63,421 bases of DNA from Sphyrna mokarran (Eukaryota): assembly GCA_024679065.1 (NCBI GenBank), contig JAGIQG010000040.1:8928001-8991421 (forward strand), written 5' to 3'. Below the pieces are notes generated by a model. That model had not been told where the DNA came from, made no database searches, and worked only from the letters and a program-made list of their open reading frames with translations. A program made the translations under genes and the position numbers. Each line of letters starts with the position of its first letter. Position 1 is the stretch's first letter. Positions 9,340 to 63,421 of this stretch are shown here, piece after piece.

Positions 9340-9426
9340 CTTTCTGGTGATTTGGGTGAAATGATTGTGTTAGGAACTCAGTGAACAAACCAGCTCCCGG
9401 ACTGTTGGATTCCGGTCCCAGTGAGC

Positions 9427-17569: not shown

Positions 17570-18225
17570 AATTTGACAAAGAAATTATTGAATCAGAACA
17601 GACACGGCAATCAGGAGAGTTCTCCTTCAGCCTCCAAATCATTACAGCTCATTTTATTGGCCAGCAGCTAGTATTAGGAGCACTGGGTATCAAGACTTTG
17701 TGGCGTAATGCACAATGTCACTAGAATAAATGTTTGATCTGCCACTGAATCAGATTATGGATTGGTCATTATTTCACTCATTGGCAGTCATAAGAAGGAC
17801 TGTTAAATAATCGAAATCAGATAATGCTAGACATATAACATGTTGTACATCAGGTATAAGTTTTTAATTAGGTGCAGAACATTGAGGATATTCCAGTGTA
17901 CCGGCTGTTCAAGGCAGATATGTGATTTTTATTTATTTTTAATTATTTTCATTTTTGTGCCTTTACGCTGATCTCTTGGGACTGAGGGATTGGGGGCATC
18001 AACATATTTTTTCTTGCTCTTCATGAAGTTGTTCATAAAAAGACTTTAACTGTTGGAAAAGAATTTGTTTGGAAGTTATCCAAATGAAAGATCATCAAGT
18101 CAATTGACTAATTTCCGATACATTTTAATTACATAATGAACAGTGCATTCACTAAAATATTTGCTTAGAAGAAATACCATGTAAAACGTGTCTTTCTTTA
18201 GGGAATAAAACATTTATTGTATAAC
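17570..18225. repeat. upstream homology block, copy 2 (upstream of pseudo-VH)
   Basis: Direct-orientation homology to 10270-10935. Confidence 0.85.
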
Positions 18226-19207
18226 TGATGAAGTCCCATTTTATCCTTATAGGTTCACGTTAATCTGTCCTACGCAGTATTTGGCAACAGTCCAATCTGC
18301 TATCAAATGCTCAAAAATATTTACAGGAAGCATCTGAGGGCGTTTGTTCAGTAAAACTAAAATCTGTTTCCTCAGTACTGAACACTTGGCTGCAAGCCAA
18401 CTTCAAACACTCAGCATTGTCAATGTGTCCATTTATAAACAAATCTACCCAGCAACAGTTCAGGAGGCAATTTAATTATTTTAAATTTGCAGACAAGTAT
18501 GAATGTTTCCCATTTCTTCGGAAAGGAAAGTGTACAGTTCTCTGGCATCTTGTTAGCAACAATGATGATCTCCCCATCAAAACATTGATGGATGGGCATA
18601 AAATAGGCAGATTGTGAGAGCTGATTCAGAGGGGTGATATAATTTATACGACATAAACATGTGTGATTCTGTTTCCTTTCACTTTTTTTTCACGAGACGT
18701 GGGAACATTTATTCCCTTTGCCTAATTTCTCTTGAACTGAGTGGTATGCTAGGGCATCAGAGAAGGCATTGCCCAGTTAGTTATATTGCTGCCTGTCTGC
18801 AGTCATGTTCTGGTGAGACTAGGTAGGGATGGTAGATTTCCTTCACTGGGGAATCAGAGAGATTTATCTGATCGCTGTCAGTATGTATTCCAGATTTATT
18901 GATTGAATTCAAATTCCAACAGGTGTCAGTGTCGGATTTAGTCCTATGTCTACACATTATTGGCCTGGGCTTCTAGATTGCTGGTACACTGGCATTAATA
19001 TTACGCCACCATCTATCCAAAAATAAAGGGATGCTTGCGTTAATGCATGGATGAATGATAGCTGAATGCCTGAATGTTGTGATTCAGGAATCAGTGAGCG
19101 GACGGAGGGATGTGAAAATAACATTTTCTATTCTGCATTCGGATATTTGTGATTTACTACTTCAAGGATCGAAGCAGGTCCTTTATTCCAATTGTGTCAG
19201 CATGCAA

Positions 19208-21190: not shown

Positions 21191-21289
21191 CAACCATGAG
21201 CTCTTCCAGATTTTCTTGGTGAATTCAATTCCCGAGCCACCAGGAACAAGTGAACATAGCTAAGTCTTTTCTTTCTTCTTCTTCTGTCG

Positions 21290-21850
21290 CAGAGTCATAG
21301 TTGTTTAAACATGGACACAAGCATTTCGGCCTAACTTGCCCATGCCGCCTTTTTATTAATCACTAAGCTTATCCCAATTTCCCATATTTGGACTATATAC
21401 CTCTCTACGGATCCCTATCTTTGTAACTGCCAAAACTCTTTATAAAAGACAAAATTGTACCCGCCTCTAACAGTAATTCTGGCAGCCTGTTCCAGACACT
21501 TCTGTGTGAAACAATATCCCCTCCGAACCATTTTGTATCACTCCACTCTCATATTAAATCTATGCCTTCTAGATTTAAACTCCTCTACCACTGGACAAAG
21601 ATATTCACTACCTATCTGATCTCTGCACCTCATTAATGTACAGACATCTATAAGAATCCCCCAAGCCTCCTATTCTCCGGAGAAAAATAAGTCTATCCCA
21701 GTCTATCCAGTCTCTCCTTACAACTCAAATTATCGAGCCCTTGTAGCATTCTCGTAAATCTTTTTGGCACTCTTTCTAGTTTAATAATATCCGTTCTATA
21801 ATAGGGTGACCAGAACTGTGCACAACATTCCAAGTGTAGCCTCACCGATG
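21290..21850 (-). mobile_element. old CR1 LINE 3' fragment
   Basis: gggtgaccagaactgtgcacaacattccaagtgtagcctcac is the reverse complement of the RPHLEYCVQFWSP region. Confidence 0.75.
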
Positions 21851-22057
21851 TCTTCAAAATTTTCCAATCCAGTGGAGATTCGGTTGAGGGAGGTGGATTG
21901 TAATGTTTGGAACACGTGACCCTTTTTAGTGCAACAAATCAATCATCATCCGAATTAGTGGAAGTAACAGGTTAAAGAAAAACGACTGATACATTGCGAA
22001 ATTCACTAGACAACGTCAAGTGATAAATTACTTTCCAGTGCTCTGCACATGTGCAAG

Positions 22058-22380
22058 GGCAGTACAGTGTTACAGTGGTTAATCCTGCTGCCTCACAACG
22101 CCAGGGACCCGAGTTCAATTCCATCCTCGGTCACTGTCTGTGTGGAGTTTGCAGTTTCTCTCCGTGTCTGTATGGATTTTCTCCGGTTTATTCTAGTTTT
22201 CTCCTGCAGTCCGAACAATTGCAGGCCAGATTGATTGGCCACGCTGAATTAACCCTTGTATCAGGAGTATTAGTAGGGTTAGCATGAGGGGTAACGGGAA
22301 TAGGGCCTGACTGGCATTGAGTCGGTCCAGGCTCGATGGGCCAATGGTTTTATTCTCCACTATAGATTGTTTGTTCTATG
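22058..22380 (+). mobile_element. near full-length V-SINE/HE1-like SINE
   Basis: tRNA-derived head (cagtggttaatcctgctgcctcacaacgccagggacccgagttcaattcc), V-domain and CR1-like tail. Confidence 0.85.
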
Positions 22381-22759
22381 AGTTACTAATCTGGATTTTA
22401 AGGCTCTATAACGTCACATTAGATATTATAGATGAAATTTAACATTGGTTATTGATACTTTCAGTCATGCAGTCATTTTAAAAATGACTCCAGTTATTGT
22501 ATCAGAGAATTATGTGTGGTGATGAGGTGATTACTTGTCAATAAACCACAACGGCTGCTGGGTAGCTTCTCCTGATCCCCAGTCTGATTCAATTCAATTC
22601 CCCGCTGAATTCTGGGACAGATTTGATCCTTTGGTGACAGAAAGACCAAAGTGATTACAATAAATTTGAATTTCAGTAAGCTACATTAATAAATAAAATG
22701 CTGAAAAGAATATGTGAAATACTTTTTTGTGATTTGGAGATTATTAGTAATATTAGCGC

Positions 22760-23480
22760 CAAACAATGACCATCTCCAAAAGGAGAGAATCTATCCATTG
22801 CTCCCCGCCACTCAATAATATTGCGATATTGAATCACGCACTATAAACATCGTCGGGGTTACCACTGGCTAATTGCTGAATTAACTAGGTATATAAATGT
22901 TCCGGATGGAATAGCAGGTTAGCTTGCTGTGAGTAATCCATCTCCAAACTCCCTAAACCTGTCCACTATCTACAAGCCACAACTCAGGATGAAAGAGGGT
23001 TCCTTCCACTTGCTTGAATGAGTGCAGCTCAAAGAACATTCAAGAATCTTTAACGTATTTCGGACAGAGCAGCCGGCTTGATTGGCACAGCATTTCCAAA
23101 TGCTCACTCTCTCCATCATCCACAAACAACAGCAACATTATACACCGTATTCAAGTTTCACTTCAGAAACTGACCAAGAATCCTCAGGCAAAACCTTCCA
23201 AACACACGACTGTTACCATTTGGAAGGATGGGGTAAGATTTACCTGGGAATGTCACATGTAAATTCCGCTCCAAGTCAGTCATATACCTGACTTGGAAAA
23301 ATATCGTCCTTCCTTCATTGCCGTTTCAATGAAATTCCAGAACCTCCTCTGTAACAGCACTGTGTGAGTACATGCACCACAGATTTCGCAGGAATTCTCA
23401 TCACCATCTTAATAGGGGCAATTAATGATAGGCAGCAAATGCTGACCTAGCCAGCAGTGACCACATTCCTCAAATTAAAA
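22760..23480 (+). mobile_element. old LINE 3' fragment (L2/CR1 group)
   Basis: caaacaatgaccatctcc...cctgtccactatctacaag...gacttggaaaaatatcgtccttcc...ggggcaattaatgataggcagcaaatgctg. Confidence 0.65.
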
Positions 23481-24429
23481 CATAAATATATTAATGTTTA
23501 TGAATTGTTGATAACAGGTGAGTAAAATTATGCAACTTTGTGAATGGATATCAACTGGTCAAAATAAATACCAACTTCATGAACATTGATGATCTTCTCC
23601 TTCTTGATGGAAGATAGGATGCGCTCCACAAGAGATCCGAGAAAAAAAGCCGCGAGAGGACACCGTAACAACTACAGGTATGTGTACATCATTGCCAGTG
23701 ATACATCTGAAAGCATTCATCTGTTTGAAGATCCGGATTACCTGAAGCTCTTTGCTGTGTTTATAACGAAAAACAATGAGTCTAGAAAAATATCTGCTCC
23801 ATGTGCCCTATGTGCTTATCTTTACCTTCGTCAATCTCATGAAGATATTCCATACTGGTAGCAGAGCAGGGACTGCCATATTCTGGGAAAAAGTCGCCCT
23901 CCATCAACACTCCTCAGTCTCATTCACGACACTGAAAACAACAACTTATAACCACAATTGGTAGCTTCATGGGCAGCAGTTGTAACAGAGTCAACTTCTC
24001 AAAAATGTTCCTCCTCGGTCATCAATAAAGGTAGCATGTGATAAAGAAAACATTTTAAAATTAATGTGTTTACACTGTGACTATTTTTTTTGTTATTATT
24101 TTAAATGGAAGGACGCCAGTTATCATTGTGAAATTGATTTGTAAACAACATGGCATTGTTCACACACACACACACATTTTCCTTCAGCTTAAGATTCCAT
24201 CTTGGCTTCCTGGGGCTTAAGAAACAATCACTCCAACTATATTTCAGATGGAATTGTGAACAAAATAAAAATCCCAATCACCATGTTTGTGGAGCTGAAC
24301 ATTAAAGGTCCCATTGTCTCCAAGAGCTCCCTGGTCAGCAATCCTTCTAAACAAAATGAACAAACACGCATTACCATGGATTGAGGTATTATGCTCTGAT
24401 GCTGAACTGGCAACGTAGGAACATAGGAA

Positions 24430-24652
24430 CAGAAGTTCCCCTCCAAGCCGCTCACCATTCTCACTTGGAAATATATCGCCGTTCCTTCAGAATCGCTGAG
24501 TCAAAATCCTTCAATTTTTTTCCCTAATGACATTGTGGGTCTACCCGCAGAACACGGACTGCTGCGATTCAAGAAGGCAGATCACCACCACCTTCTCAAG
24601 GGTAACTAGGTATCGGGAATAAATGCTGGCCAGCCGGCGACGCCCATGTCCC
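24430..24652 (+). mobile_element. LINE/Deu-SINE-type 3' tail
   Basis: acttggaaatatatcgccgttccttc...caagaaggcagatcaccaccaccttctcaagggtaactagg...aataaatgctggcc. Confidence 0.7.
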
Positions 24653-25370
24653 AAGCAGAAGTAGGCCATTCAGCTTCTAGGTCTTGCCCCACCATTCAGT
24701 TAGACCATGGTTGATCTGGGCCAAATTATATGTGCCTATCCTTGGCCCACATTTCTTGATACCCCTGTTAGTAAAAGTGGATGATAGATATGAGTCTAAT
24801 AATTGAACCAACACCGAATCGCCTTTGAGGGAGAGAGTCCCAGAAGTCCATCACCACTCGCTTTATGTGGAAATGCTTTCGATCAACTCTTCTGAACGGC
24901 TTGGTCCGATTTTTTAAATAATGGTCCTTTTTATCTTAGAACGTTAAACTTTTGAAAAAATAAATCTTTATCCGTCCTGTCCTACCCCGTAAATATTCTG
25001 TAGATTTATGTCAGAGCACCCCTCATTTTTCGAATTCGAAAGAAAACGTCCCAATTTGTCTAATTTCTCCTCGCAACTTAAAACCTGAAGACAAGGTATA
25101 ATTCTTCTGAACCTGCGTTCAACTCGTTCTATTGCTAAAATGTTCCCAAAGGTTTGGTGTCCATACCTACACACAGTTCGCTAGGTGGCTCTAACCGGGA
25201 TTTTGTGCAATTGCAGCATGGCATCTACATCCCTACACTCCAGTCCTTTAGATACGAAGGCCAGAATTCCGTTGGCCTCCTTGACTATTTCCTGCATCAG
25301 TTCGTGGCATTATTAGAAGCTATGTACCTGAACCCCCAAATCTCGCTGGCTATCCATTAAATTTAACTTT
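24653..25370 (-). mobile_element. old CR1 LINE 3' fragment
   Basis: Minus ORF 24968..25174 contains AIERVERRFRRIIPCLQVLSCEEKLDKLG. Confidence 0.75.
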
Positions 25371-26189
25371 GTGCGTTGTAAAAATATCTTAATCTATCAT
25401 TTGGATATTTGAATTTTTGTGCCATTATCTAAGCCGTTATGAATAATGTAAATAATTGAGATCCCCAAAGATAGATTCTTGCACGACACCACTTAACTTG
25501 CATTATTCAGCAACATTTACAGTTCGTTGCACCTTAGATTCGTGCTCCTTCCACAGTTGGGGATGTGATGTTATATTTATAGGTGTGAATTCTTGATGTA
25601 TTAATGTCATAGATCATAGCTGACTGCGACCTTTTTTTGCAGTAACTGCAACAGATGGAATTAAAATCTTTATTTTTTATATTGCATGAAGAAGGCAATG
25701 TCTCAATGAATGCTACATTGCACCATGTGCTTATATACACATATAAAATAATGTACGCTGAGTGTGATTAGAATATATTATATTATACGCCATCCTGTTT
25801 AAACACATACTGCACCAGTGCATGTCAATGTATACATCACACAATCACTCGGATTCGTATTTTTACAGTTAGGGTCCAACTTTGCAGTTCTGCCACATGC
25901 AGTCCTGAATGGTGCTATATAGTTGAAAAAAAACTGCAGTAAGAGCCTCAAATAAAACCCCCATTCTTAATGATGGGGGATCCCAGCAAAAGGGAAAAGA
26001 AACAAGACCGAAACAATTGCTGCCATCTTCAGCCAGAAGGTTCAAGAGGATATATCATCTTGGTCTCCTGTGATGCTTCAAGCATGGAGCATAAGAACAG
26101 GAGTGGACCAATCAGCCCCTGGAGCCCATTCCGCCATGCAATCTGATCATAACTGATCTGTGGCCTAATCCTGTACTGAAGTCGTTGGG

Positions 26190-27600
26190 CAGTGCAAAGA
26201 TTAAGGGTCCTGACAGTATTTCAGGAATGATAATAATGATTTGTGCTGTGGAGCCAGCTATTCCCCAGCAATCTATTCAAGTATAGCTACATCACATCCC
26301 CAAACAGAATATTGTGGAAATTGGCAGACATGCCCTGTTGCAAAAGGCAGGACAAATCCAACCCGACCACCTGTCACCTAATGATTCCAGACTCCATCAA
26401 TGTAATTGGAAGTATGAAGGATGATCCAAAAAAGTAATAATAACATAATAATAATAACAATACTGCTACAACTACAACTAAAAACAATTGTTCAATGATG
26501 CTCTGTTTTGATCCCACTAGGAGTAGCAGGAGGATTTAATCTTAGTCCAAATATAGTGGAAATAGCTGATTTAATGATGTGTGTTGAGGGTGTCTATACT
26601 CGACACAACACTTTGACGGGTTGTGGCATCACGAAGTCGAGCAAAGTCGCAGCCAATGGGGATCTGTGAAAAAAAAAATCCATCAGTTTCAGTCACACCA
26701 GGTTCAGTGTAAGATAGCTGTGGTTATTGAAAGACAATCATCTCAGTTACAGGACATTGCTGAAGGAACTCCTCAGGATTGAGTCCTCGGCCTAATGTTC
26801 TCACTTTAATATGAGCTCAGAAGTGGGATGTTCACTGATGATTGCGCAATATTCAGCATATTTACAACTCCTCAGGTACTGAAGCAGCCCGTGCCCATAA
26901 GCAGCAAGAATTAGAAAGCGTTCAGACTTTGGCTGTAAAATGCCAAGTGACATTCACGCCGCCCAAATGGCTGGCGATGACCTTTTCAAGTAAGAGAGAT
27001 CCCCAACATCTCCGCCTGTCATTAAATAGAATGACTACATTCTAAAACATCCACTATCATGATTTTGGGAATTACAATTGATTAAAAAGTGAACTGGGAC
27101 AACCATGTAAATAATATTGCTACAAGAGCAGGTCAGAGATTGGGAAATGTGTGTGGAGTAACTCACCTCCTGACTTCCCAAACCCTATCCCCCATATTCA
27201 GGGCAAAAGTCAGCATTGTGAGTTAATATTGTCCACTTTACTGAAGTATGGCCCTGCGACAACACACAAGTTCGACACCACCAAGTAAAAAGCAGCCGGT
27301 TCAATTAATACCCAACACCACATTAAACATACACTCTCTGTGTCACAGATGTGCAAATCTGGCCTGTGAGCGGCATACAACTGGTATAGCAGCAACATAA
27401 TCTTTCAAATGCAGCTTCGAAACACATTAACCTTGATACTTAAAAGGACAGGGGCAATAGCTGCATAAGAACACAATTACCCTGCAGGTCTGCATAAAAC
27501 CCACACTTGACTGGGATCTATATCACTGTATTTCAATGTCCATAGATGAAAATTCTGTAATTCCCTTCTTAACTACACTGTGAGTATATTTACTTACACC
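26190..27600 (+). mobile_element. decayed LINE RT fragment
   Basis: ggaactcctcaggattgagtcctcggcc (GVPQGSVLGP-like), gatgttcactgatgattgc (MFADD-like), aagagcaggtcagagattggg. Confidence 0.7.
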
Positions 27601-28506
27601 ACATATTTAACCGACACATGCTGGGACACTAAGGATAGTTTAGTTTGGTCAGCTTATCTTACTCACACATCATTGGACTGTGGGAGGAAACTGGAGCAAC
27701 ACAAGAGAATCCATACAGACATTTAGAGAATTTGAACTTCTGGCTCCGGAACATTACTTCAAGCTTCTGGAATATTATCTTGATAACGATAATGTTGCTG
27801 TATTACTCCTTAGACTGAAATATCACCACACCTAATAATGGAATAAATGAACATTTAGCACTGGTTCACATGTTCGATCATAAAGTCAATCATCTGTTGT
27901 GGGAATTGAACACATTACCATTTGACTCGAAACTGATGTTGATTCCACTGAGAAAAGGCTGTTAATTGATCACACTTTGAGTTTTGCCATTATGACATTT
28001 AGTGCAGTGCATCTAAATTCTGAAATCTGTGTCCAATATTACACTGGTGCATTTAATTGTCAGAAACAAGTCTTCTCCTGGCCTTGATTCTTACACTGAC
28101 ACGATGGAAATGATTAATGTGAATTCTTTTAAAATTCTATCAATTCCTACAATGTCATCGAGAAACATACGAGGCAGAAGCTCTTACACAGCTTCATGTT
28201 AATCATGCATGAACTGCACTATCAGAACAACTGAACCTGAGTTTTTTTTTTTTCCCCCCTTGGAACGGAGTAGCTTATGGGAGATTTAGTATAACATTTC
28301 AACGCTATGAACGGGAATGTGTTACTCATTAAGAAAAACATATTATCACTGGCAAGCGGGCCAGTTTACAGAAGACACTGCTTTATTAATTGTGAATTAA
28401 CTGAATCATCCCTCTGATTACATTACACCAGTCCATACTTGTATTTATTCTGTACAAGATCCAATATTTATTTATATGACAATAGACGCTATCTGGAAAT
28501 GTTATT

Positions 28507-29345
28507 ACAAAGAACAAAGAACAACAAAGAGCAACACAGCACGGGAAACAGGCCCTTCGGCCCAACGAGCCTGCGCAGCCGTCCTAACGTCTTAATGACA
28601 TAACCATGACTTTTAGGCTATGCCTATTGTGGAAGATTCCCATATAGGGACCAATATAGGGACAATTTATTATCCAATCAGCCTAAGAGCACATTTTTGG
28701 GATGTGGGAGGAAACCGGAGCACCCGGAGAAAACACACGCAACCACGGGGAGAACACGCAAACTCCCGCAGACACAGGCCCAAATCCATGCGTCTGCACA
28801 GCATCAGCGATAGTCTCTGAGCTGTCAGGTTGCCCATCAGATGGTCCAGTTTAAGCATACACGAACGACGTAAAGCACTAGGCAACTCCTGAAGCAACAT
28901 CCAAGAGCAGCCCTCGCACGACCTGCCGAATGCATGCACCTTGTTGGTCAACAAGGTGGACCGAATAGCCTGTGGAAACAAATAAGACAGTATTAAACAT
29001 GCGAAAAACTCAGGGATAGACATCCCTGAGACAAAACTAAAAGATATTCTAATACTATTTGGTCGTCTCAAAGCTCCCGATATTTAGACAGTCCTCTATC
29101 TGCAGACCGCTCATGTGGCTGTCCAAGAGACCCTTAAACAACCCTAGCGTGCCTGCTCCCACCACCTTACTCGGCAGTGCATTCCACACCCCCACTATCC
29201 TTTGTATGAAAAACTGCCCTCTAATATTCGTCTTATACATAGCCCCCCTCACCCTAAGCCCGTGACCCCTCGTTCTATCCATTTCTAATGGTGGAAAAAG
29301 CTTACCACCATTTACTCTATCTATACCCGTCTTAATCTTGCACTT
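28507..29345 (-). mobile_element. CR1 LINE 3' end with long SINE-core-containing 3' UTR
   Basis: Minus ORF 29055..29378 (GIDRVNGGKLFP...TRGHGLRVRG...WNALP); UTR homologous to 3775-4220 and 42402-42860; (acaaaga)n tail. Confidence 0.9.
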
Positions 29346-30379
29346 ATTCAATTCTCTCTTTTTCTCTCTCTCTTTCATTCTCCTTTCTCAGTCAACATCG
29401 CAGTTCATCCTCCCTGATTCATAACATTAGATCATATATCGTTACTATTGAACTAGGTTATGATTTTTTGGAAGAAATGGTTGACCTTTTCTAATTGGTT
29501 TCCAGAATGGGCAATGCATATGTGTATATTTTACTAAGTCCTGACTTCAGATTTATCACACTGTACCTCCTTCAGTTATTACTGCATTTTACCATGTTAA
29601 TACTTCATCTTGCACAGGAGTTGTCTCAGTAATGTACGAGGCCATGTCTCTTTTTTTTTCTTTCTTAAAGCACTGTATTTGTGTGGACCACACAATTGAA
29701 GTTTAATTTATTAATGCACTGGACCTTGTTTCTATAAGGGCTACAATTAATCCGATCTCAGTTGTTACTGTACTTGACAATATTCAGTGCAATAACACAT
29801 TTGGTGCATTCTTGTACAGTAATGCACTCGGCTATGTCTCTTTATATACCGCATTTATTTCATTTGAATTTACATTATTGCAATAAACCTTGAATCTGTA
29901 GACACTAAATTATGCGCCACTTCATTTATGAATACATGAACACATGCCGTGATAAATGCTGCAAATCATCACTTCTGAGCTGTTGTTGCATAGTCGAGAG
30001 TCCACTTACGTTATATGAAATTGTATCTCGGATATTATTGTGCTCGGCTCTATGAACGCATCCGTGCGTTACTTTGTATCACACTGAGTCCTCATAATAA
30101 AGCAGGCACTATTTCAATAATTGTTTTTCTATAAAATGCGTCTGATGGATGGAATGAAAGAAAGAGTGAGTGAGAAGAATAGATGTATATTAACGTAAAA
30201 ATCAATATAATTATGTGGATGAAAGGAGCTCATTAGTTATTGTTACTAACTAATAAGTGTCGCGTATGATACCTAATTGCTCTCATATTGTGTGTAATAT
30301 TTTCTTGAAAACTTGCGATGAATCGTGAAACATGTTTTTGTTTAAAGGGGATTGAGGAACAGATCAACCTTATGCCACG

Positions 30380-30570
30380 TTGCATTAAGAGGCAATTCAG
30401 CGTGGCCACTCCAATTAACCTTTACATCTTTGAACTGTAGGGGGAAAGTGGTAAACCTGGAGGAAACCCACACACACACGGGGTGAATATGAACACATCA
30501 CACAGTTACTCGTGCCGACATGGAACCTGGGTCAGTAACAGTGTAAAGTGCCAGTGCTAACCACTGTGTA
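30380..30570 (-). mobile_element. V-SINE/HE1-like SINE
   Basis: Reverse complement of head and V-domain (aacctggaggaaacccac...ccagtgctaaccactgtg). Confidence 0.7.
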
Positions 30571-33500
30571 AATAACTACAGTTACGTTTAAACATGCTAT
30601 GGGTAACTTATTCAGTATTTAGTTACACATTTCATGTCTCAGTCAATACCCAATGTTAATGAATTGTCCTGGACGCTCCTGAATGTGATGTACAGCTGGC
30701 CATTCCACTGTCAAGGCAATGCAGCTTTCAAATGACTCACTGATCTTTTCTCCTCTCTCTGTTTCAGACTGCAACTAAATTACATAACTTCTGCTGCTCT
30801 GTCAGTCTCCATTAATTCACTTCTACAAATGCACAGAAACCGATCTGGCTACTAGTTGGTGGGGGAAAAGTTCTTCTTTGTTGTTTAAGGCGCCTTGTGA
30901 CTGAAAAGATGAAGCAAAAAGTCTCATCAGAGGAAAATTCAGTGCCAGAAACAGGCCCGTTCACTCGCTTAATGTCTCTCCTCTATTTCTGTCACACTAC
31001 AAATAAAACACTGTAAGTTTCTACTTTAGAACACCTCCGACGGGAATAAATGGCTTTAATTTTCCCTCTTTTGTATTAGTGATAACCTTCAGTCCATTTT
31101 CCCTTCAATCAATATATGTAAACCCCAAATATGATAATTTTCTTGATACATTAAAATGGGAATGGTGGTGAATGTAATGCTGAGACCGGCAGCAATCTGT
31201 GTTTTCAGATCTTGGTGTTTTCAGAGTGAGTTCACCCTCACAGGCAGGAAGACTGTTCACGGTGATAACAACAAACGGGCCCCGGTTGTTTCATTCTCAG
31301 ATAACACAACTTCCTGTTTCATGCTGCCGCTTCCAAACCGCACATCTCACTTCTGAGCAGAAAATAAATCCAGGGACCACAATCTGGTGAGAACATCTGT
31401 CAGTGCGGCCTATATCTGTCCACAGAGTCAGGGCAGAATCACACAGATCACATTGCGGTGACATTTACAGATGAGTCTGGTGTGATCTGTTCAGAGTTTC
31501 CATTCCTGGACATAACTGGATGGATCACTGAGTTACCCCGGGTTCTGTGAAGAAAGGGAATGATAGTTATTATCTTTCATTGTTTGATCATTTTCTCTCC
31601 ATCTGCTATTTATTTTTTGTTCCCAAGCATTTATCTTTCAGTACTCCATTTTTCTTTCTCCGAACTCTCGGTGTCGTTCTCCACTCCTTGTCAGTCTTTT
31701 GAACACTTTTATTAGTATTTAAAATCGCGAAGCTGCGAGTGGGTTAAATAAAGAGAGAATATTTCAATTGGGAGGATGGTCAGCAACCCGTGGGCACAGG
31801 TTTATTTTATTGAGCAGAGAGACAGAAACGGGACTGTTTATTTTACACAAGTGTTGTTATGAACTAGAATGAACAGCTTGAAAGATTGATCGAGCTGATT
31901 TCACAGAAGCTTTGGAAAATAAATTAGATATGTTCTTCATGAGGCTAAAATTTGAGAATGGGACCAGTTTGATGATTCGTCTGTATAACTGTCCTGGCAT
32001 TCGCTTTGTGTCTCTCCCTATCATTCATTAAGACTGAATAAAATACATTTTTTTAACAGCTATTGTCTTTTCTTATATCTTTTGACAACAATTGTGTGTG
32101 TGTGTGTGTATGTGTGTGTGTGTGTAATTGCCAGGAACCATTCCGAAATTCAATTCTATTTACAAGCCATCACTTTGAACAAATGAGCATTGGATCGAAG
32201 TTGCCTACGAAAAACGCAGTTGCCCTTAACATTTATTGCACTGTTTTTTTTTCATCGGATGAAGAGTCTCATATTAGGTCCTAATTCTGTCTATAAATGT
32301 GAAACTGCCTGCAAGAATGAGAAGGAGCAGATTATTTTCTGTTCCTCTGATAGATTCGCTTTTGTTATCTCAGATAACAAAACTTTATGGAGTCCACCAT
32401 GATTAACACCCTTCCTCCAACCGCCCCACTCCTTGGGACTAACTGCTCTTAGTCTGGTGGAGTCAGTCACTCCTGCGATTGTCATATGATTTCCAGACCG
32501 TGCTTGGCACACAAATCCCTGCAAGGCCAACTCGACTAATACTATGTATCCTAAGATAAACGAGGGATGGGTTGTGTGCACTAATACAGAGACAGAGCCA
32601 AATGCAACAGATATCGATACACCTGTACTAATATGAGTGCAGTTCAGTCATTACTGAGAGAATGTATGCAGTATATTACTAAACAGTATGGTGTTTTCTC
32701 ATATAAACAGAGACATGTCATACTCAGTTTTGACAAAAGACATGGTCTATTTAGTACACGCAGAGACAAAGTGCGTTCTAATTTAAACTGAAACTGGTTC
32801 CAGCATGTCAGCGTTATCAGAAAATAGGGACATGATCTAGTGTGATATAATCAGAGATGGAGTCCAGCGGAATAAAAAGCGAGGCAACGCAGAGTAAAGC
32901 AATAATTGAGAAAGGATAGTGTGTAAAATGAACAGAGGTATGCTTTGGCTCATTAATAAAGGAGAAAGCATCTAGCGCAATAAAACTGTCACCGGGCCCA
33001 GTGTAATTTTGACTGATTCTGGCCATTGTGCAATATAAACTGAGACAAAGCCGATGCAGTAATTCCAAACCAAGCCTTTTGATTGATATATGCTTTGACA
33101 GGGACAATTGCAGCAATAAATAAATCATGAAATAGAATAATAATTACAGACAGGTTATTATTCGGTATAAATAGGGAGGTGGGCTAGTGCAGCTGTGATT
33201 GAGATATTGTCAATGTTTCTTTATACCAGGCAGTTCCAGCAATGTAATAACTGAGTTTGAGCCTCGTATAATGCAAACAGTAACATGTCCTGGTTCATTA
33301 TCAGGAGAGAGAGGGTCTAGTGAAGTAACAGCGGAGATAAGGAGTTTCATGTCATTAGACGAGAATGAATTCCGTGCTGTCATAACTGCCAGACTGAACG
33401 GTGTAATGTCAAATGAGGCTTGGTGCAGTATATAACAACTGGGGTTTTGCTGAGTACAGAATCAACTAAGAATTAATGTCAAATAATCTGAAATACGATT

Positions 33501-35231
33501 TTTTGTCATATAATCTGGGTCACGTTTAGGATGGACAAAGACTGAGTCTGTTATAGAAATGACCGAGATGATCATCTGGATCGCGTCGTGCTTAAAAAAA
33601 ACACTGTTTTACTGCCATCTCCTGGACTAGTTGTGCCATTGCAGGTGTTGCGAAATGCTGATTTCAGTTGCTGCTTCTTATTCTTTTATGAGACGTCTCC
33701 CAGCTGGTGAAGGCCGGCATATATTGGCAATTGGTAATACACTGAATTTACTGGTTTTCTAGAGCATAATAGAAGGCACATAATCGCCAAGCGCGTGTAC
33801 CCCTAGAGTTACCTCTGGGCTAAACTGGGGAATGTTGGAAGGTTTCATTTTCTGCAGGGCATTAGAGAATCTGATACATTTCTTGTCATGGTCGCAATTA
33901 CAGAAACGACCTTTAAATTCAAAATTGTAATTGCATTTTAAAACTTGTTGTAGTTGGATTTGAATATTTATCTTGAGAAATTTGACGACCCTCGGAATTA
34001 CTCTCGCAGAGATATTACCACTATGCCACTGTCTCCCTTTCAACATTGATGGACTATTTACAGCAGAGAAGGCCATTTTGAATCGTCATGTTATGTATTG
34101 GCCCTATAAAGGGTCAATTCATCCAATAACAATCTGTACCCCACAGACCAGTATTTTGTTCGTTTTCAGACAACAATTCAATCCCAATTTGAAACCATTA
34201 ATTGGCGCTGCCTACACGACACTTAAAGAGCACATTCCAGATCAGGATCACTCACTGTCCGAAAATGTTTTTCGTGATGTCTCCATGCTCCTTTCACCAA
34301 ATTATTTCAAACCACGCCCTGTGTGTCAAGATCTTTCTGCCATTGAACAGTTTCTCTCTATCTACTCTGTCAAGAACCCTCTTGATTTTGAATGCCTCAT
34401 TAAAGTCACATCAGCAATTTCCTGTCAAGGAAATTAGTCCGGAATGCTCCAAAGTATTTTGGTCACTGGAGTTTTTGATCTCTGGAATTTTTCTCTTGTT
34501 TTTCTTCCCCCTGCACCCAGCCTATCGACTTTACATTCTGCCTTTCGTTTGGTTGTCTATTTTCCAAATGTTATCTACAAATTTAACACAATTACCTTGC
34601 GTCTGTACTTTCCCCTCTAGATGAGTCACTTTTTATTTTACCCGCTGTCTCAACCTGCCTTGCACCATGAATGATTTGTGCACATCTTCACTCATGTCCC
34701 TCAGCGTCTATATTCAATTTCATAGCGTTTTCATTATATCCATTTGTCTCTTCACATTCTGTTTAACAAAACCAGTCATGTAACTTTTCTCTGCAATAAG
34801 TTAAATATCCAAATTACTCGTCCATTCCACCAATTAGTCACTTAGTTCATGGTTCCCCTCTCTTCCATTGGGAATCAGTATCCGTTAACTCTATTTCTCT
34901 TTATCTCTGGCTATTTTCCTCTGTCTCACTTTCTGCCTCCCATTTCCCCTTCATCTTCCTTTCAATACCGTATTTCAACCTCAAAACTTTCTTCTCTGTC
35001 TCCCTTTTTCATTCCCTGTACATCACCCTCGCCATTTCCTCTACCCGCTATTCCTGTCTCCTCTCGCTCTGCGAGAGTCTCTCTCTGTCTCTGTTATCTC
35101 TCTGTCTGCACCTGTTAGAAAATATTTCAAACTTTGTTGTTCTCCATGTCTTTGTGCCTTTCCCTCTGCCAATCTCTCTCTCTCTATCACTCTCACTGTT
35201 GCTAACACTGCCATCTCTCCCTCTCTCTCGC

Positions 35232-35274
<43 letters not shown>

Positions 35275-36419
35275 GTGTGTATGTAATTATTTCTGTTGCT
35301 GTGATGCTGTATTGTTGTTTACAATGAATATTAACAGGAAGAGTCAGGTACCTTCAGGTTGCAGTTTCAAGTCAGAATGTATTGAGATGAAGAATTGCAG
35401 TAAAGGGGTATTTCAGAAGGTCTTTTAGCTGCTTTCTAAAGTGAGTCTGTGTCACAGCATAAATGGCAGTGTTTGTGTAGCAACTTGTGAGTTGCAGCAT
35501 AAACCCCAATTCCATAACATAGAGATGTAACATCATCGACTGATAGCCCAAGCTATATATCCGACTCCATATTGAATAAAGCATTAATGTCCACCATAAG
35601 ACGATGAAATTCGCTGAGATGGCAAAGAGTAAAATGATGGATTTCCTTCGACTCTCCATTTCTGGGTCACTATGATTCTCCCCACTGCTCTGAGCCCGGA
35701 GTATCCTGCGGGCTCTGCTGCTCACTAAAATGTGCCTGACGGTGAGAGGAATTGAGCAGCAGAGTCAGAACAAATGGGACACACGGTGTTATAATGTTGT
35801 GGAGAAACTCGATTGTTGCCCAGACTGGAGAATTCACAACATCCCATGTGAAATCACAAAACCAGGGGTTGTTCACCAGCGCATATCTCTTTAATAACAT
35901 AAAATACCAGAAAATGTTCTTTAAAAAGCTCAGCACCATCACTGTTTCCAGAACCACAGCCGCTGATTTCTCAGTGCAATATTTATTTTTCAGCTTGGGG
36001 CAGCAAATTGCCATAAATCGATCAAAGGTGAAAGTGACGGTGAACCAGACAGAACAGTCAGTGGCTGCGTAAAGTAGGGCTGCGTGGATGTTACACACGG
36101 GGACTGAGAGCAGGAAAGAAAACCTTCCCCAATAAACAATGGGAATCTTTCAGAATATCAGGTCGAGGATAATAACCAGCAGATCCCCCACTGACATGGC
36201 CACCAGGTACCGAGTGACACATTTGGACAGACCACAGTTTCTGCTCATCAGTGTCACAATTGTGATTATGTTCACTGTCAGGAAGGGAAATACAGAATAA
36301 AATTAGATATGATTCACGGAGATTTTACTATTCAAAATGCAGATGGATCAAAATTTTAAAAGAGTTTGCACAAACACTGTATTGAAAAAATCTCCTTTTG
36401 ATGAACCAGCACGTCTTTT

Positions 36420-36570
36420 GGAGTCCGAGAGAATGTGGAACATCTGGAGGAAACCCACGCAGACAGGGGGAGGAAGTCCAAACTGGACACAGACAGTGAT
36501 CGAATCCTGGGATTGAAGCCAGGTCCCTGATGTTGTGAATCAGCAGTGCCAACCACCGTGCCACCATGCT
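36420..36570 (-). mobile_element. V-SINE/HE1-like SINE 5' part (mirror of 57620-57775)
   Basis: Reverse complement of ggtggcacggtggttggcactgctgattcacaac..cagggacctggcttcaatccc. Confidence 0.75.
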
Positions 36571-38227
36571 GCTCTATGGTCCGTTCGAAATGATATTCAT
36601 TTCGGAAAGACTTTTCTGTGGATTCCTCAACATTGACCCTCACTCAGCTGCAGGTAAATAGTCTCTCTACCCTCTTGGGATTTGGAGAGTGAGAAGGCTG
36701 TGGAGGTAATCATGAGAGAAAATTCAGAGTGGAGTCCTGTGGGTAGCAATCTGTGAACTTTCAGACAGCTTACTGACAACCCCTGCAGCAGAGCTGGTAC
36801 CAAAGAGTGCTGGTTTCAGCCTTTCCTCTGGAAACTGCCAGCAGTTGGCAGTGAAACATTCTAATGCCTCGACAGCTCAGAATCTCTGTTATATTTACAA
36901 AAGACTATATCCTGGAGAGGAGACCACAGCATTGTGGTCACCGTTTACACAACACAAGAAGAAATAGTAACCCCACACTCAAATGACACAGAACACTATT
37001 ACCAGGGTTTGCTTTCAAAGCTTCAGGTTTCAGTGTATAGCTACTGTCAATTGTTCCCAGTGTATTTGCAGCTGGCCCACTATGACTTACTGGACCAGTG
37101 AAGCTCAGTAAGTCCTCTTTCAGTAGGAAAGTTGCCGATCTGTGCACCAGATAAAAAAAAAACTCCAACCAAGGCCATTACCAAAGAAAAATCAAGCAGC
37201 ATGCCTTAATGACTATTGTCCAGTGACACATATAAGAACACAGGAAGAAGTCATTATCTCATACTCGAATGACACAGAACACAGCCACCAGGGTTTGCTT
37301 TCAAAGCTTCAGGGTTCAGTATATAGCTATCATCCATTGTGCCCAGTGCATTTGCTGTTGCCCCCTATGACCTACTGGAGCAATGATTCATGCCATACCT
37401 AATCTTAATCATACCAGCTGACCAGGTGGCTAGGATAAGTAAGAAGCTTCTGGAGTTTGTGGGAGCTTGGAATGGCCCAGGGTGAGGCCTCGAGTGTTGG
37501 AGTAATGAAGTTTCTTTATTAAAGCTTTTTGTTTGCTTTACAAGTTGGAGTAAAATTTGTTTCATTTTATTGCCAAGAACTAAAGAATCCCTTCCAGAGC
37601 GAATGGGGCTGTCCCATAGGGGCACCGTCTGCACCTTTAAAAAAATCCAAAGTTACAAGAGCTTTTCGCCTCTATTTTGTTTTCAGTGAATCTATGACCT
37701 GATGTAAGTTGGCCAGATGGTAGCAGGCACAGCACAATTCTCCAGTGGAATAGGCCTTCTGGATAATTGGCAAGTGAATCCTTAACTATCAGGAGCACAA
37801 CAAATATGATACTACGCAGCCCCCTTCCCTCTTCCCATTACCTCCTGTACGAGCTGCATCCCCAGCCCATGCTCTAACCCATTACTATTCAAAACTCTGC
37901 CTGTCTCCTCAAGTTAATCATTTGCTAACATCCACCACATTCTCAGGTAATGAATTCAACAGATTCATCACTCATTGAGAGAAGTGATTTTTCCCCATGT
38001 CTGTCTTAAATCTAACTGCTTCAGGTGATCGAGCCCTGCTTCTGGTTGTACTCAAGAACTGGTGGATCTGCCCTAAATGTAGTTGTGTTTTTTTTATATA
38101 ACCCTAATGATTAATCAACAACCCTGTACTCAGATTGGCTTGAGGTTGGCAACAATAATAACTAGAAATAGGTCCCTTTTAGCTGTGTGTTTTATTTAAA
38201 TTCATGGGCTGGCACAATGCAAAACCA

Positions 38228-60110: not shown

Positions 60111-63100
60111 TAAATACTCCATCAATGTTGAAAGGGAGACAGTGGCATAGTGGTAATATCTCTGCGAGAGTAATTCCGAGGGTCGTCAAATTTCTCAAGA
60201 TAAATATTCAAATCCAACTACAACAGGTTTTAAAATGCAATTACAGCATTCTGTTGCTGTGATGCAGTTACAATTTTGAATTTAAAGGTCGTTTCTGTAA
60301 TTGAGACCATGACCAGAAATGTATCAGATTCTCTCATGCCCTGCAGAAAAGGAAACCTTCCAACATTCCCCACTTTAGCCCAGAAGTAACTCTAGGGGTA
60401 CACGCGCTTGGCGATTATGTGCCTTCTATTATGGTCTAGAAAACCAGTAAATTCGGTGTATTACGGATTGCCAATATATGCCGGCCTTTACCAGCTGAGG
60501 CATCTCATAAAAGAATAAGAAGCAGCAACTGAAATCAGCATTTCGCAACACCTGCAATAGCAAAACTAGTCCAGGAGATGGCAGTAAAACAGTGTTTCTT
60601 TTAAGCACGATGCGATCCAGATGATCATCTCGGTCATTTCTATAATAGACTCAGTCTTTGTCCATCCTAAACGTGACCCAGTTTATATGACAGAAAATCA
60701 TATTTCAGATTATTTGACATTAATTCTTAGTTGATTCTGTACTCAGCAAAACCCCAGTTGTTATATACTGCACCAAGCTTCATTTGACATTACACCGTTC
60801 AGTCTGGCGGTTATGACAGCAAGGAATTCATTCTCGTCTAATGACATGAAAGTCTTTATCTCCGCTGTTACTGCACTAGACCTTCTCTCTCCTGATAATG
60901 AACCAGGACATGTTACTGTTTGCATTACACGAGGCTCAAACTCAGTTATTAATTACTAAAACTGCCTGGTATAAAGAAACATTGACAATATCTCAATCAC
61001 AGCTGCACTAGTCCACCTCCCTTTTTATACCGAATAATAACATGCCTGTTATTATTATTCTATTTCATGATTTATTTATTGCTGCAATGTTCCCTGTCAA
61101 AGCACATATCAATCAAAATCTTGGTTTCGAATTACTGCATCGGCTTTGTCTCAGTTTATATTGCACAATGGCCAGAATCCGACAAAATTACACTGGGCCC
61201 GGTGACAGTTTTATTGCGCTAGATGCTTTCTCCTTTATTAATGCGCCAAACCATACCTCTGTTCATTTTACACACTATCCTTTCTCAATTATTGCTTTAC
61301 TCTGCGTTGCCTCGCTTTTTATTCCGCTGGGCTACATCTCTGATTACATCACACTAGATCATGTCCTTATTTTCTGAAAACGCTGAAATGCTGGAACCAG
61401 TTTCAGTTTAAATTAGAACGCACTTTGTCTCTGCATGTACTAAAAAGACCATGTCTTTTGTCAAAACTGAGTATGACATGTCTCTGTTTATGTGAGAAAA
61501 CACCATACTGTTTAGTAATATACTGCATACATTCTCTCAGTAATGACTGAACTGCATTCATATTAGTACAGGTGTATCGATATCTGATGCATTTGGCTCT
61601 CTCTCTGTATTAGTGCACACAACCCATTCCTCGTTTATCTTAGGATAGATAGTATTAGTTGGGTTGGCCTTGCAAAATCGTAAGTCATTTTTCCCTTAGA
61701 GTATGTGGATTAGCCATCGTAAATGCTTGGAGCTAACGGAGGTAAGGAGAGGGGAAGACCTGGGTGGGATGCAGACTAGGTGGCCTTTCTTCTGAACTGT
61801 AGTAATTCTATAGTTCTATGTCTAAGAAATATCAAAGACATTTGTGTGCTTATTTATTTTAACTATTCTACTTTCTTATAACCTCCTTTGGAGAAATGAT
61901 CTCTTTTAGCAATTCCCCTTCAGTTTTCTAGTGATAATCTTCAGTCCATCCCTGCCTTCCACGAATGCATGAAAACACCAAATAGTAAATTTGTTTCAAA
62001 AGAAGAGCATTTAGCATATAAATATCAATTGACAACCATTCTGTTGTATGCTCTCGCGTACAAAATGATTTCAGCCTCACTATTTTGTTCCCGGTGTTGT
62101 CTTATTTGTGTTTAGAGATCTGTTGGAAAATGAATAAATCACATCTCCAATGACGAGGAGATTACGGAAATTGATCTTCTCAGTGTCTCACTAAAGTTCC
62201 TGATGTAGGACTCAATTGTGTGCTGGTTTGTGAACATGATGGCGAAAATGACCCTGCATATATTGCCGACAGGAGATAGTTACACCTGTAATTCTCAAAC
62301 TTCTTGTATCTATTGATGCAAAGGATTGTAACATCTGCCATTCTCCAGAAAAGGAGCAGCATTCCTCTTTAACCATTATGTTCACCATTTCCATGGTAGC
62401 CATCGTAAGTATTTTCTACGGTGTATGGGTTGTACAATCTCGGTAATACGATGAGTCATGATCAGGTGTATCATAAGGATGGCCAGACCTTATGTGATAT
62501 AAACAGTGATATTGCCTGGTGGGCATGGACTGCAGCGATTCAAGATAGCAGCTCATCACCACATTGTCAGGGGCAATTAGAGAAGGGCAATATATGTCAC
62601 TGCTGCCCATATCCTATAAATGATTAATAATTATGCAGTAACGACAGAGACAGAATCTAATCTAATGTAGACAGATGTGCCAGTGCAATAAACATAAACT
62701 GGCTGGGAGAGTCATGTCAAGCAATGTGTGAAATCCCTAGAGTAAGAGAGACTGTGATGTATTTAAATAAACAGTTTTTGCGCGTGTGATAATTCTAGAA
62801 AAACGTACTTCATCCAATAATAACCGGCAAGTGTCAAGTCAAGCAAAATTATAAACAGATTCTTATTCACAACAGTTTGGGTAACGGTTTACAAAACTAA
62901 TCATAGAGGGTTGGAATATTATAATTTGAATGATTGGTTCCAGTGTATCACTGACAGAGACAGCTGGGCCTGGAATGAGACTGGGACCTGATATAAAGAC
63001 CATTCCTGGGGTCTTGACGCAGGTTTCTTTGTCATGACGAGTGATACAGGGATTTGTGTGCCAAACACCGTCTGGAAATCCTATGACAATCGCAGGAGTG

Positions 63101-63421
63101 ACTGACTCCACCAGACTAAGAGCAGTTAGTCCCAAGGAGTGGGGCGGTTGGAGGAAGGGAGGGGGGTGTCAATCATGGTGGACTCCATAAAGTTTTGTTA
63201 TCTGAGACAACAAAAGTGAATCTATCAGAGGAACAGAAAACAATCTGCTCCTTCTCATTCTTGCAGGCAGTTCCACATTCATAGACAGAATTAGGACCTA
63301 ATGTGAGACACATCATCCGATGAAAAAAAGACAGTGCAACAAGTGTTAAGGGCACTTTCCTAGGCAACTTCGATCCAATGCTCATTTGTTCAAAGTGATG
63401 GCTTGTAAATAGAATTGAATT

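Follow-up and report, generated by a model that had tools for sequence, protein, structure and literature searches.

Segmental duplications are copies of at least 1 kb with at least 90% identity. Mosaics of such duplications consist of blocks more than 90% alike, lie in both orientations, have a mosaic ancestry, contain hybrid genes and pseudogenes, and involve family clusters that are often found at scaffold ends. The human subtelomeric olfactory-receptor blocks are a known example, and hybrids of the red/green opsin genes and of the KIR genes are formed by unequal crossover. In a palindromic amplicon that is maintained by arm-to-arm conversion, the arms are nearly identical and mutually closest throughout. 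In elasmobranchs, the passages of the antigen receptor complex (AgRC) study considered here describe a single chromosome on which IgH miniclusters are found together with TCR alpha/delta and NAR-TCR, the TCR being a translocon (PMC12227049). Linkage of PSMB5 and UrIg2 is a further mark of the complex. The shark IgM minicluster possesses one V, two D, one J and one set of C exons, as outlined in part of PMC6795676. The human extended MHC contains tRNA, histone and olfactory-receptor clusters, for which hitch-hiking is suggested in a section of PMC2776167. Among receptors, the GPR139/GPR142 group includes GPR210A/B (PMC6504862), and an 'Orphan 139-like' category is in use (PMC5207463); the passages of these two sources that concern the group do not mention an expansion in sharks.

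We analyzed a window of 63,421 nt of Sphyrna mokarran (JAGIQG010000040.1, a scaffold called C994 below). Positions above 63421 or below 1 are given in window numbering and lie on the same scaffold beyond the window. The locus is a recombining segmental-duplication mosaic. With the mosaics outlined above it shares blocks of more than 90% identity, both orientations, mosaic ancestry, hybrids and pseudogenes, whereas in the shark an orphan GPCR exchanges its promoter together with the N-terminal exon, and tRNA genes are joined to this unit. On C994 there are NAR-type V segments, IgM clusters and two TCR-delta-like constant regions with multiple J; in the joint presence of IgM, TCR-delta and NAR-TCR it agrees with the AgRC depicted in the passages of PMC12227049. 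Unlike that account, receptors and tRNA arrays are interleaved and co-duplicated with the clusters, and distal C994 contains 11 further delta-like constant exons. The terms 'GPR', 'G protein' and 'tRNA' have no match in the main text of that paper. The human extended MHC likewise has immune genes with tRNA arrays and a large GPCR family in their midst (sections of PMC2776167). However, the GPCR family and the immune genes are different ones, and in the shark the three parts are contained in a single duplicated stretch of tens of kb, in which the tRNA copies decay.

Self-BLAST of the window gave inverted blocks at 32147-32521/63421-63047 (91.9% identity), 32520-37386/61674-56813 (94.2%) and 37415-41411/56012-52009 (93.3%), with indels inside the blocks and zero N letters within the window. 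This confirms the inverted duplication of the preliminary description, with arms of at least 9.3 kb and 11.4 kb in the window and a 10.6-kb spacer, and its real extent is larger (Table 1). The full arms measure about 37 kb (41411 to 4229) and about 44 kb (52009 to 95897). Their collinear blocks are 89-95% identical over 35.4 kb aligned; thus, the arms are a segmental duplication.

Table 1. Coordinates of the features in window numbering
Feature	Position	Strand	Basis or remark
Left arm of inverted segmental duplication	4229..41411	-	Collinear blocks 89-95% identical to 52009-95897
IgM minicluster leader-V-D1-D2-J	7626..9340	-	V-RSS23, 12-D1-22, 12-D2, 23-J
VH relic	16598..16717	-	Mirrored in right arm and third copy
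Left GPCR exon 2, pseudogene	35372..36274	-	Stop at codon 114 (36152), one-base insertion near 35751
Left GPCR exon 1	39446..39662	-	Splice donor AT rather than GT
tRNA-Gln(TTG)-like, left cassette, stem-breaking changes	40972..41044	+	ARAGORN; Rfam 42 bits
Spacer of reshuffled tRNA-gene-array pieces and LINE fragments	41412..52008	.	Pieces recur beside other scaffold copies
tRNA-Arg(ACG)-like	42022..42096	-	ARAGORN
tRNA-like gene with insertion	44784..44875	-	ARAGORN Lys, under default score
tRNA-Phe-like, internal deletion	45494..45554	-	Rfam
tRNA-Val(AAC)-like	46531..46605	-	ARAGORN and Rfam
tRNA-Thr(TGT)	47423..47495	+	ARAGORN and Rfam; top-scoring tRNA of window, 75.6 bits
tRNA-Gln(CTG)	49275..49346	-	ARAGORN and Rfam
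tRNA-Asn-like, anticodon ATT	51346..51419	-	ARAGORN; homologous units elsewhere have GTT
tRNA-Val(CAC)-like	51774..51846	-	Rfam
Inner junction of right arm	52006..52012	.	Comparison of tRNA-Gln copies
Right arm, in-window part	52009..63421	+	Runs on to about 95900-98300 past window end
tRNA-Gln(TTG)-like, right cassette, stem-breaking changes	52383..52455	-	ARAGORN; Rfam 52 bits
Right GPCR exon 1	53761..53977	+	217 nt; encodes N-terminus plus outer half of helix 1; donor GT
Right GPCR exon 2	57913..58814	+	372-aa class A 7TM protein after splicing

Both arms contain a tRNA-Gln gene, an orphan GPCR of two exons, an IgM V-D-D-J and a VH relic; in the left arm the GPCR is a pseudogene. The outward-pointing module of tRNA-Gln, 1.3 kb and a two-exon GPCR was found in both arms as described before. 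The two GPCR copies stand in that each arm has a two-exon receptor, but the left one is broken. An IgH minilocus had been described next to the structure, but since the full arms include the IgM V-D-D-J, this IgH minilocus belongs to the duplication and is not merely adjacent. The C-mu1-4 exons of the left-arm cluster are located outside the window, 3-7.5 kb to the left of its start. With these exons the cluster shows the shark IgM minicluster pattern (V-D-D-J, 23/12/22/12/23 RSS, C-mu1-4), although the scan did not recover the RSS on the inner side of D2, and agrees with the passages of PMC6795676. The right arm possesses a mirrored IgM V-D-D-J past the window end. Unlike the minicluster outlined there, no C-mu exon was found for this copy, which falls short of a full IgM minicluster, and the clusters are copied together with receptors and tRNAs.

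A third copy of the block lies 150 kb away, at about 212950-263400. When the arms were compared, the closest relative alternated along the arm among the three big copies. Over 17.4-9.4 kb the two arms are mutually nearest; across the receptor, the distance of the left arm is 2-4% to the third copy and 4-6% to the right arm. The longest identical run is 227 bp. The arms are neither mutually closest copies nor homogenised. A 463-kb map contains 13 receptor exon-2 loci, 6 VH and 16 tRNA calls, with numerous direct and inverted duplications. The in-window pair is one among many duplicated blocks and has no special structure; taken merely as an inverted repeat, it is ordinary.

Five tRNA genes of the spacer were called by ARAGORN, two more by Rfam and one more at a relaxed ARAGORN score. 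The tRNA-like gene with an insertion presumably resembles tRNA-Pro. In most copies of the cassette (tRNA-Gln, promoter and exon 1), the tRNA-Arg(ACG)-like gene and tRNA-Gln are 1.05 kb apart; the right arm lacks this Arg gene. Its inner junction is marked by homology with 22 of the 22 other tRNA-Gln copies examined, which begins at 52009, and by the end of a 406-bp tRNA-Val unit at 52005/6. In four public contig sets most copies leave the stretch at 52009, and no listed piece bridges this junction.

Each tRNA-Gln(TTG) gene is located 1.3 kb from the receptor ATG, head to head with the receptor. Promoter and exon 1 were found in 19 copies at 93% identity or more (next best, 83%), which are 15 distinct copies at 99.5%. 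A Gln-type tRNA gene is present in 19 of these 19 and the spacing is fixed. The cassette is co-amplified, as the window alone had suggested. All 19 cassettes sit on distal C994 or on small contigs, and 14 have an IgM or NAR-TCR-delta-like minicluster at a distance of at most 40 kb; the expected neighbourhood to antigen-receptor clusters was therefore observed. Four of the 23 Gln copies examined run instead into Phe/Val/Asn/Tyr genes. No selection on the cassette tRNA-Gln was seen: its divergence is 5.5% (median flank, 4.8%) and its body is variable at 16 of 73 columns versus 112 of 650 in the flanks (p=0.33). The cassette tRNA genes are likely to be decaying passengers. Locus L164, which is outside the cassette clade, also has a Gln gene in a decayed state, 1.5 kb ahead of its exon 1; the junction of tRNA and receptor may therefore be older or may have arisen twice.

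In the tree of promoter and exon 1, the 19 cassette copies group together with a UFBoot of 99, as a single clade in which the mean distance is 4.2%. In the exon 2 tree, 16 cassette copies are split over four clades (UFBoot 99-100), with a mean distance of 7.0% although this part is coding. These four clades intermix with cassette-less genes and are up to 11% apart, and monophyly of the cassette exon 2s was rejected (delta lnL 90, AU p=9.6e-7). What is new is that the cassette is a single young clade while its exon 2s belong to four older clades. This difference argues for front ends that were exchanged through the intron, and recombination between gene copies is likely, judged from these sequences, to have exchanged the promoter and exon 1 within the family. 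Single loci agree. L108, whose intron switch point is at about 10.957 Mb of C994, is 0-2.4% from L106 in the first 5 kb and then 0.6-2.6% from L102. L163, with its switch point at about 12.2597 Mb, resembles L167 at 96.5-98.3% as far as base 5765 and L115 at 98.1% from 5762 onwards; its exon 1 differs (45% aa).

The right receptor is intact (372 aa) and the left receptor is a pseudogene, whose splice-donor lesion in exon 1 is shared by copy L114. The receptors are class A (rhodopsin) GPCRs (Pfam 7tm_1, 70 bits with a cut-off of 30.5) and are named 'probable GPR139' in databases. The family, which takes 128, 132 and 130 places among the matches listed, is spread over more than 20 scaffolds. GPR139 is activated by aromatic amino acids and is expressed in brain. 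In a search with the family profile, human GPR139 was the best match of solved structure (E=3e-15), whereas a single receptor protein matched it weakly (E=2e-4). Profile and database name thus agree with the GPR139/GPR142 group; with the weak single-protein match and hundreds of shark copies, orthology is not supported, and GPR139 is the nearest characterised relative. Among copies with both exons, 13 of 17 are intact, and dN/dS is 0.39 (0.29-0.54) across 10 distinct intact genes. Intact copies under purifying selection thus stand alongside pseudogenes, and the birth-and-death evolution proposed earlier for the receptors is borne out. For the extracellular parts, dN/dS is 0.58 (0.37-0.95), versus 0.30 elsewhere; the value of 5.1 for the N-terminus alone comes from very few synonymous changes and was given no weight. 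Positive selection on the extracellular parts was rejected.

The tRNA-GPCR cassette of the preliminary description was examined as a candidate for a general tRNA-GPCR-Ig system. ARAGORN detected no tRNA within 10 kb upstream of exon 2 in 40 receptors on other scaffolds or in 12 on proximal C994, in a scan that would overlook tRNAs separated from exon 2 by a long intron, exon 1 being seen in part of the loci. A partial tRNA BLAST hit lay upstream of 1 of the 40 receptors off C994. VH genes of at least 60% identity occur on C994, C1082 and C969 only, a narrower range than that of the receptors, and no receptor exon was found in four tRNA-array tiles of C446. This co-occurrence check, named beforehand as one that could refute the proposal, gave no link elsewhere. 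Since the tRNA counts are zero, VH is restricted and the cassette tRNA is no more conserved than its flanks, the general system is unsupported, and a family-wide tRNA-GPCR cassette was likewise rejected. Within distal C994, the link of tRNA and receptor is stronger than pure regional overlap. Among its 10-kb tiles, which are not independent, a tRNA is present in 14 of 28 receptor-bearing ones and in 3 of 38 others (p=1.6e-4); in the evenly spaced tiles alone, the numbers are 6 of 10 and 2 of 10 (p=0.17). Eight extra C994 tiles, one picked for known tRNA hits, were left out, and one of these eight has a tRNA. Unrelated receptor subfamilies of distal C994 have different tRNA types upstream. Both observations weigh against the explanation given next.

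We consider it likely that the two arms are members of one recurring duplicated block, which multiplies and is reshuffled by non-allelic crossing-over, that the tRNAs are decaying passengers, and that the young cassette spread to several older receptor bodies via crossovers in the intron. The block comprises a tRNA-array piece, a two-exon orphan GPCR and an antigen-receptor minicluster on a shark Ig/TCR scaffold. In the distal 4 Mb of C994, receptors, tRNA arrays and Ig/TCR miniclusters are seen to interleave. As the remaining four Gln copies are followed by a tRNA array, one rearrangement would have fused such an array, at its Arg-Gln end, with the promoter of a receptor. The resulting cassette is present in the 19 copies of the shallow clade. 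Unequal crossover or long-tract conversion would then have mixed the exon 2s among cassette-less genes, consistent with the changes of nearest relative inside the intron. The right arm would be a derived, inverted copy with a break at 52009. Most receptor copies stay intact under purifying selection, and some, such as the left one, die.

Alternatively, the cassette may be regulatory, with the tRNA A/B boxes, which TFIIIC would bind, as an insulator or open-chromatin anchor of the receptor promoter; the cassette would have spread because the expression it confers, possibly in lymphocytes of the antigen-receptor complex, is useful. That a single young cassette occurs on four exon-2 lineages may need selection, since drift explains it poorly, and the constant spacing in 19 copies, the local co-occurrence of tRNA and receptor, and a similar hitch-hiking idea in part of PMC2776167 also point this way. 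The boxes vary at 2 of 23 columns and the remainder of the tRNA at 14 of 50, but this is not significant in a test of low power (p=0.40). Moreover, most family members have open reading frames and yet no nearby tRNA, and copies with a dead splice donor travelled along with the cassette. We regard a regulatory role as unlikely. Equally doubtful is the wider proposal that germline exon exchange diversifies the receptors, that a tRNA-anchored cassette swept the AgRC receptors via lymphocyte-type control, and that receptor, tRNA and minicluster are one evolving unit.

False duplication or misjoins among similar repeats, producing the pair and the apparent chimeras, seem very improbable. The near-identical copies (L102-104, L106/107, L111/112) and the youngest chimeras, L108 and L163, which no reads bridge, could be assembly errors. 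Near-identical blocks lie at 10.4-10.55 and 11.9-12.3 Mb of C994. An N gap lies near 101140, just beyond the right arm, and the unbridged junction at 52009 fits as well. However, the arms are 5-11% apart with separate insertions and lesions, and the four old exon-2 clades would demand many repeated misjoins. The least probable alternative, a single locus-specific palindrome centred on the tRNA cluster and kept by arm-to-arm conversion, has in its favour symmetric arms (about 37 kb aligned span) that flank a tRNA-rich spacer and are mutually nearest over one stretch, but is largely refuted by the switching nearest relative, an identity of 93-94%, the short identical runs and the numerous other inverted pairs of the region.

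In the openly accessible literature, mostly at the abstract level, we found no shark GPR139-like expansion, tRNA-GPCR-Ig block or such an exchanged unit, and a term search of PMC10620051 and PMC11979771 gave no passage on the expansion or the block. The recombining mosaic of C994 shows how cluster-type shark antibody and TCR genes multiply, namely within blocks that also bear tRNA genes and orphan receptors. It also offers a concrete route to receptor diversity, in which promoter and N-terminal exon are exchanged through an intron, and trees from exon 2 alone mislead for this receptor family. The 19 cassette-bearing genes and the many cassette-less ones are a ready test set for tRNA-insulator and expression ideas. 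As leads only, the atlas look-alikes of P0003 are GPR139-like and FMRFamide-receptor-like clusters.

The preliminary description had proposed an inverted duplication, and this structure was recovered: positions 32147-41411 of the window pair with 63421-52009 in three blocks of 91.9-94.2% identity. The two arms differ by indels as well, and no N occurs in the window. After 200 kb of flank was added on each side (window numbering continues below 1 and above 63421), the full arms were mapped from 41411 to 4229 (left) and from 52009 to 95897 (right), with 35.4 kb aligned. A third copy of the block lies at about 212950-263400. The resulting 463 kb of C994, the 12.33-Mb scaffold that carries the window, contains 13 receptor exon-2 loci from several subfamilies, six full VH genes, 16 tRNA calls and many further duplications, both direct and inverted. 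An older inverted pair (about 85%; -28563 to -14470 and 184387-196415) carries another receptor subfamily, pointing outward from tRNA-Phe and tRNA-Val genes in the same layout as the arms.

In both arms, a tRNA-Gln(TTG) gene stands head to head with a two-exon GPCR gene, the ATG of which is 1.3 kb away. The right gene, with GT-AG splicing, encodes 372 aa and contains a 7tm_1 domain (Pfam). Judging from the Pfam start, the intron would divide helix 1, whose outer half would be encoded by exon 1 together with the N-terminus. In the left gene the splice donor is gone, one base has been inserted and codon 114 is a stop. Thirteen of the 17 receptor copies with both exons are intact, and dN/dS is 0.39 (0.29-0.54) for 10 distinct genes; the receptors are under purifying selection. 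The N-terminal 57 codons (window 53761-53931; dN 0.073 vs dS 0.014 in the intact cassette copies) are a candidate for diversifying selection that rests on few changes. A 290-bp inverted repeat (80%) is present in the receptor intron (window 54365-55167 and 38257-39058), close to several homology switch points.

Most of the 801-bp tRNA-Gln region was matched at 92% or more in 24 places, 23 of which were examined. Receptor exon 1 follows the tRNA-Gln at constant spacing in 19 copies (the cassette: tRNA-Gln, promoter and exon 1). Further tRNA genes (Phe, Val, Asn, Tyr) follow it in four, which probably represent the older array context. Matches of at least 93% to the promoter and exon 1 were found at exactly the 19 cassette places, the next best reaching 83%. 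In all 22 other tRNA-Gln copies, the match to the right arm starts at 52009, the point at which a 406-bp tRNA-Val unit stops. Thus, the right arm has a private junction. At the cassette-less locus L164, a degenerate Gln gene whose flank is of another type lies 1.5 kb upstream of exon 1; this is evidence against all tRNA-receptor junctions having arisen once and recently.

The cassette tRNA looks neutral. Its body diverges by 5.5%, vs a median of 4.8% in non-coding windows (15 distinct copies). Variable columns number 16 of 73 in the tRNA-Gln body vs 112 of 650 in the flank (p = 0.33), and 2 of 23 in the boxes (p = 0.40); the anticodon is altered in one copy. A selected regulatory or insulator cassette is an alternative that we consider unlikely.

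In a tree with six other paralogues, the promoter and exon 1 of the 19 copies group as a single shallow clade (UFBoot 99), at a mean distance of 4.2%. In the exon-2 tree, 16 cassette copies are spread over four clades (UFBoot 99-100) amid 23 cassette-less paralogues, and their mean distance is 7.0%, although exon 2 is coding; two copies without exon 2 within 10 kb and one that was too short were left out of this tree. Constraining exon 2 of the cassette copies to be monophyletic lowers the log-likelihood by 90 units (AU p = 9.6e-7).

Individual loci were also compared. The first 5 kb of the chimeric locus L108 are 0-2.4% from L106, and the sequence thereafter is 0.6-2.6% from L102. The chimeric locus L163 is L167-like up to base 5765 and resembles the cassette copy L115 from base 5762. 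Thus, nearly the same exon 2 (0.9%) stands behind two different exon 1s (45% identity). Loci L095, L096 and L164 have one common exon-1 protein and differing exon-2 clades. Around exon 1, the left copy of the window clusters with L114, with which it has the dead donor in common; in exon 2 it clusters with the right arm. The 3' intron and the flank downstream diverge in step with exon 2, a pattern better explained by crossover than by short conversion. Misjoins could account for the youngest chimeras but hardly for the four-clade exon-2 pattern, and assembly error as an overall explanation is improbable. Near-identical copies (>99.5%) at 10.43-10.55 Mb and 11.9-12.3 Mb of C994 and on the small contigs C47, C180, C1058 and C1271 may be very young duplications or assembly haplotype duplicates.

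The nearest relative changes along the arm. The left arm is closest to the third copy at 41-33 kb and to the right arm at 17-10 kb; the right arm is closest to the third copy at about 31-19 kb and again in the Ig segment. Left and right share no identical run longer than 227 bp. These results show a mosaic of duplicated blocks and rule out a homogenised palindrome; a palindrome kept as such is the least probable explanation, and the inverted repeat is not a palindromic amplicon.

The locus combines a block mosaic, a 19-copy cassette and discordant exon trees. Non-allelic crossing-over is probably the cause; it would have produced both the mosaic and the exon discordance, with the tRNA genes as passengers of the duplicated blocks. 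In its mode of operation the locus is comparable to segmental-duplication mosaics that carry hybrid paralogues. The setting is like that of the human extended MHC (PMC2776167). No description of shark tRNA-GPCR-Ig blocks or of this receptor exon exchange was found in the literature searched.

A general tRNA-receptor association, also suggested earlier, was not borne out genome-wide. ARAGORN, which called seven tRNA genes at 40972-52455 (Rfam, nine), was applied to the 10 kb upstream of receptor exon 2. None of 40 receptors located on other scaffolds had a tRNA call there (BLAST added one partial hit), nor did any of 12 at 2.6-8.6 Mb on C994. At 9.5-11.7 Mb on C994, four of eight receptors had an upstream tRNA (six counting partial hits), as did five of a further 10 C994 loci. 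In distal C994 tiles, which are not independent, tRNA was present in 14 of 28 receptor-bearing vs 3 of 38 other tiles (p = 1.6e-4); evenly spaced tiles alone gave 6/10 vs 2/10 (p = 0.17). The link is local, not general. A tRNA-Val motif has 193 exact genome matches; among 100 listed, many lie in arrays on scaffold C446, and four C446 tRNA-array tiles contained no receptor exon. Dense arrays of Lys(TTT), Val(TAC) and Thr(AGT) genes, 6-9 per 10 kb, occur at C446:130000-150000 and 1880000-1900000.

The receptor matched 2291 database proteins. Among 120 listed, 117 were named from elasmobranchs, nearly all as 'probable G-protein coupled receptor 139', and three had no name. With the family profile, the top solved structure was human GPR139 (E = 3e-15), although a single receptor protein matched it weakly (E = 2e-4). 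The receptor thus ranks as a relative, and orthology is not supported. Genome searches with three subfamilies gave at least 128, 132 and 130 places, each from about 2500 candidates, without overlap on inspection; 39, 9 and 59 of the matches listed are on C994. Thirteen of 17 other sampled scaffolds of at least 16 Mb have a copy no more than 0.5 Mb from an end, and from this sample the family appears largely subtelomeric.

An IgM V-D-D-J is present in both arms, and its signals are canonical. C-mu1-4 accompany the left cluster; no C-mu exon was found in the right cluster, which ends close to an assembly gap. The VH genes at 8856-9165 (-) and its mirror, 90863-91195, read ELQ and ECL, vs EWL in the other four; the usual tryptophan after GLE is missing, and both are possibly impaired. 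A full C-mu1-4 set at 202125-209102 (loci L018-L020), with no VH found upstream within the region, is an orphan constant region.

An IgM VH is present at 40 kb or less from three of the 19 cassettes, and a TCR-delta-like constant exon at 30 kb or less from 11. Complete reading of four blocks showed, tail to tail with the receptor, a minicluster made up of a NAR-type V, a leaderless V with a CDR1 cysteine, a single J, and one constant and one transmembrane exon. V-D-J signals were found in three of the five NAR-type V that were looked at by sequence or hit. From their features, we take these segments to be NAR-TCR and supporting V. Each minicluster has a single J, no evident D, and its own constant and transmembrane exon. 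With 11 constant exons in the distal region, the miniclusters differ from the TCR translocon of reviews; they resemble marsupial TCR-mu clusters. Two more delta-like constant exons, with five J each, lie at 3.87 and 5.36 Mb on C994.

Coordinates of TCR-delta-like regions and scaffolds with end-located receptors
Feature	Location	Strand	Content
NAR-TCR-delta-like minicluster	C47:21724-36361	-	V/J/constant/transmembrane exons
NAR-TCR-delta-like minicluster	L121:826-6860		V/J/constant/transmembrane exons
NAR-TCR-delta-like minicluster	C994:10973068-10988828	-	V/J/constant/transmembrane exons
NAR-TCR-delta-like minicluster	C994:10432807-10455224	+	V/J/constant/transmembrane exons
NAR-TCR-delta-like minicluster	C994:10511443-10533183	+	V/J/constant/transmembrane exons
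Multi-J TCR-delta-like constant region	C994:3852108-3869050		
Multi-J TCR-delta-like constant region	C994:5359603-5391218		IgH-like V upstream and inverted V
End-located receptor scaffolds (13)	C738, C783, C805, C749, C838, C849, C971, C938, C927, C794, C894, C960, C446		

The antigen-receptor content of C994 is consistent with the antigen receptor complex described in PMC12227049, the main text of which mentions neither GPCR receptors nor tRNAs. VH genes of at least 60% identity were found only on C994, C1082 and C969. Scaffold C1082 (11298-420769) carries eight at about 50-kb spacing, several with identical score, and is a second tandem IgH array.
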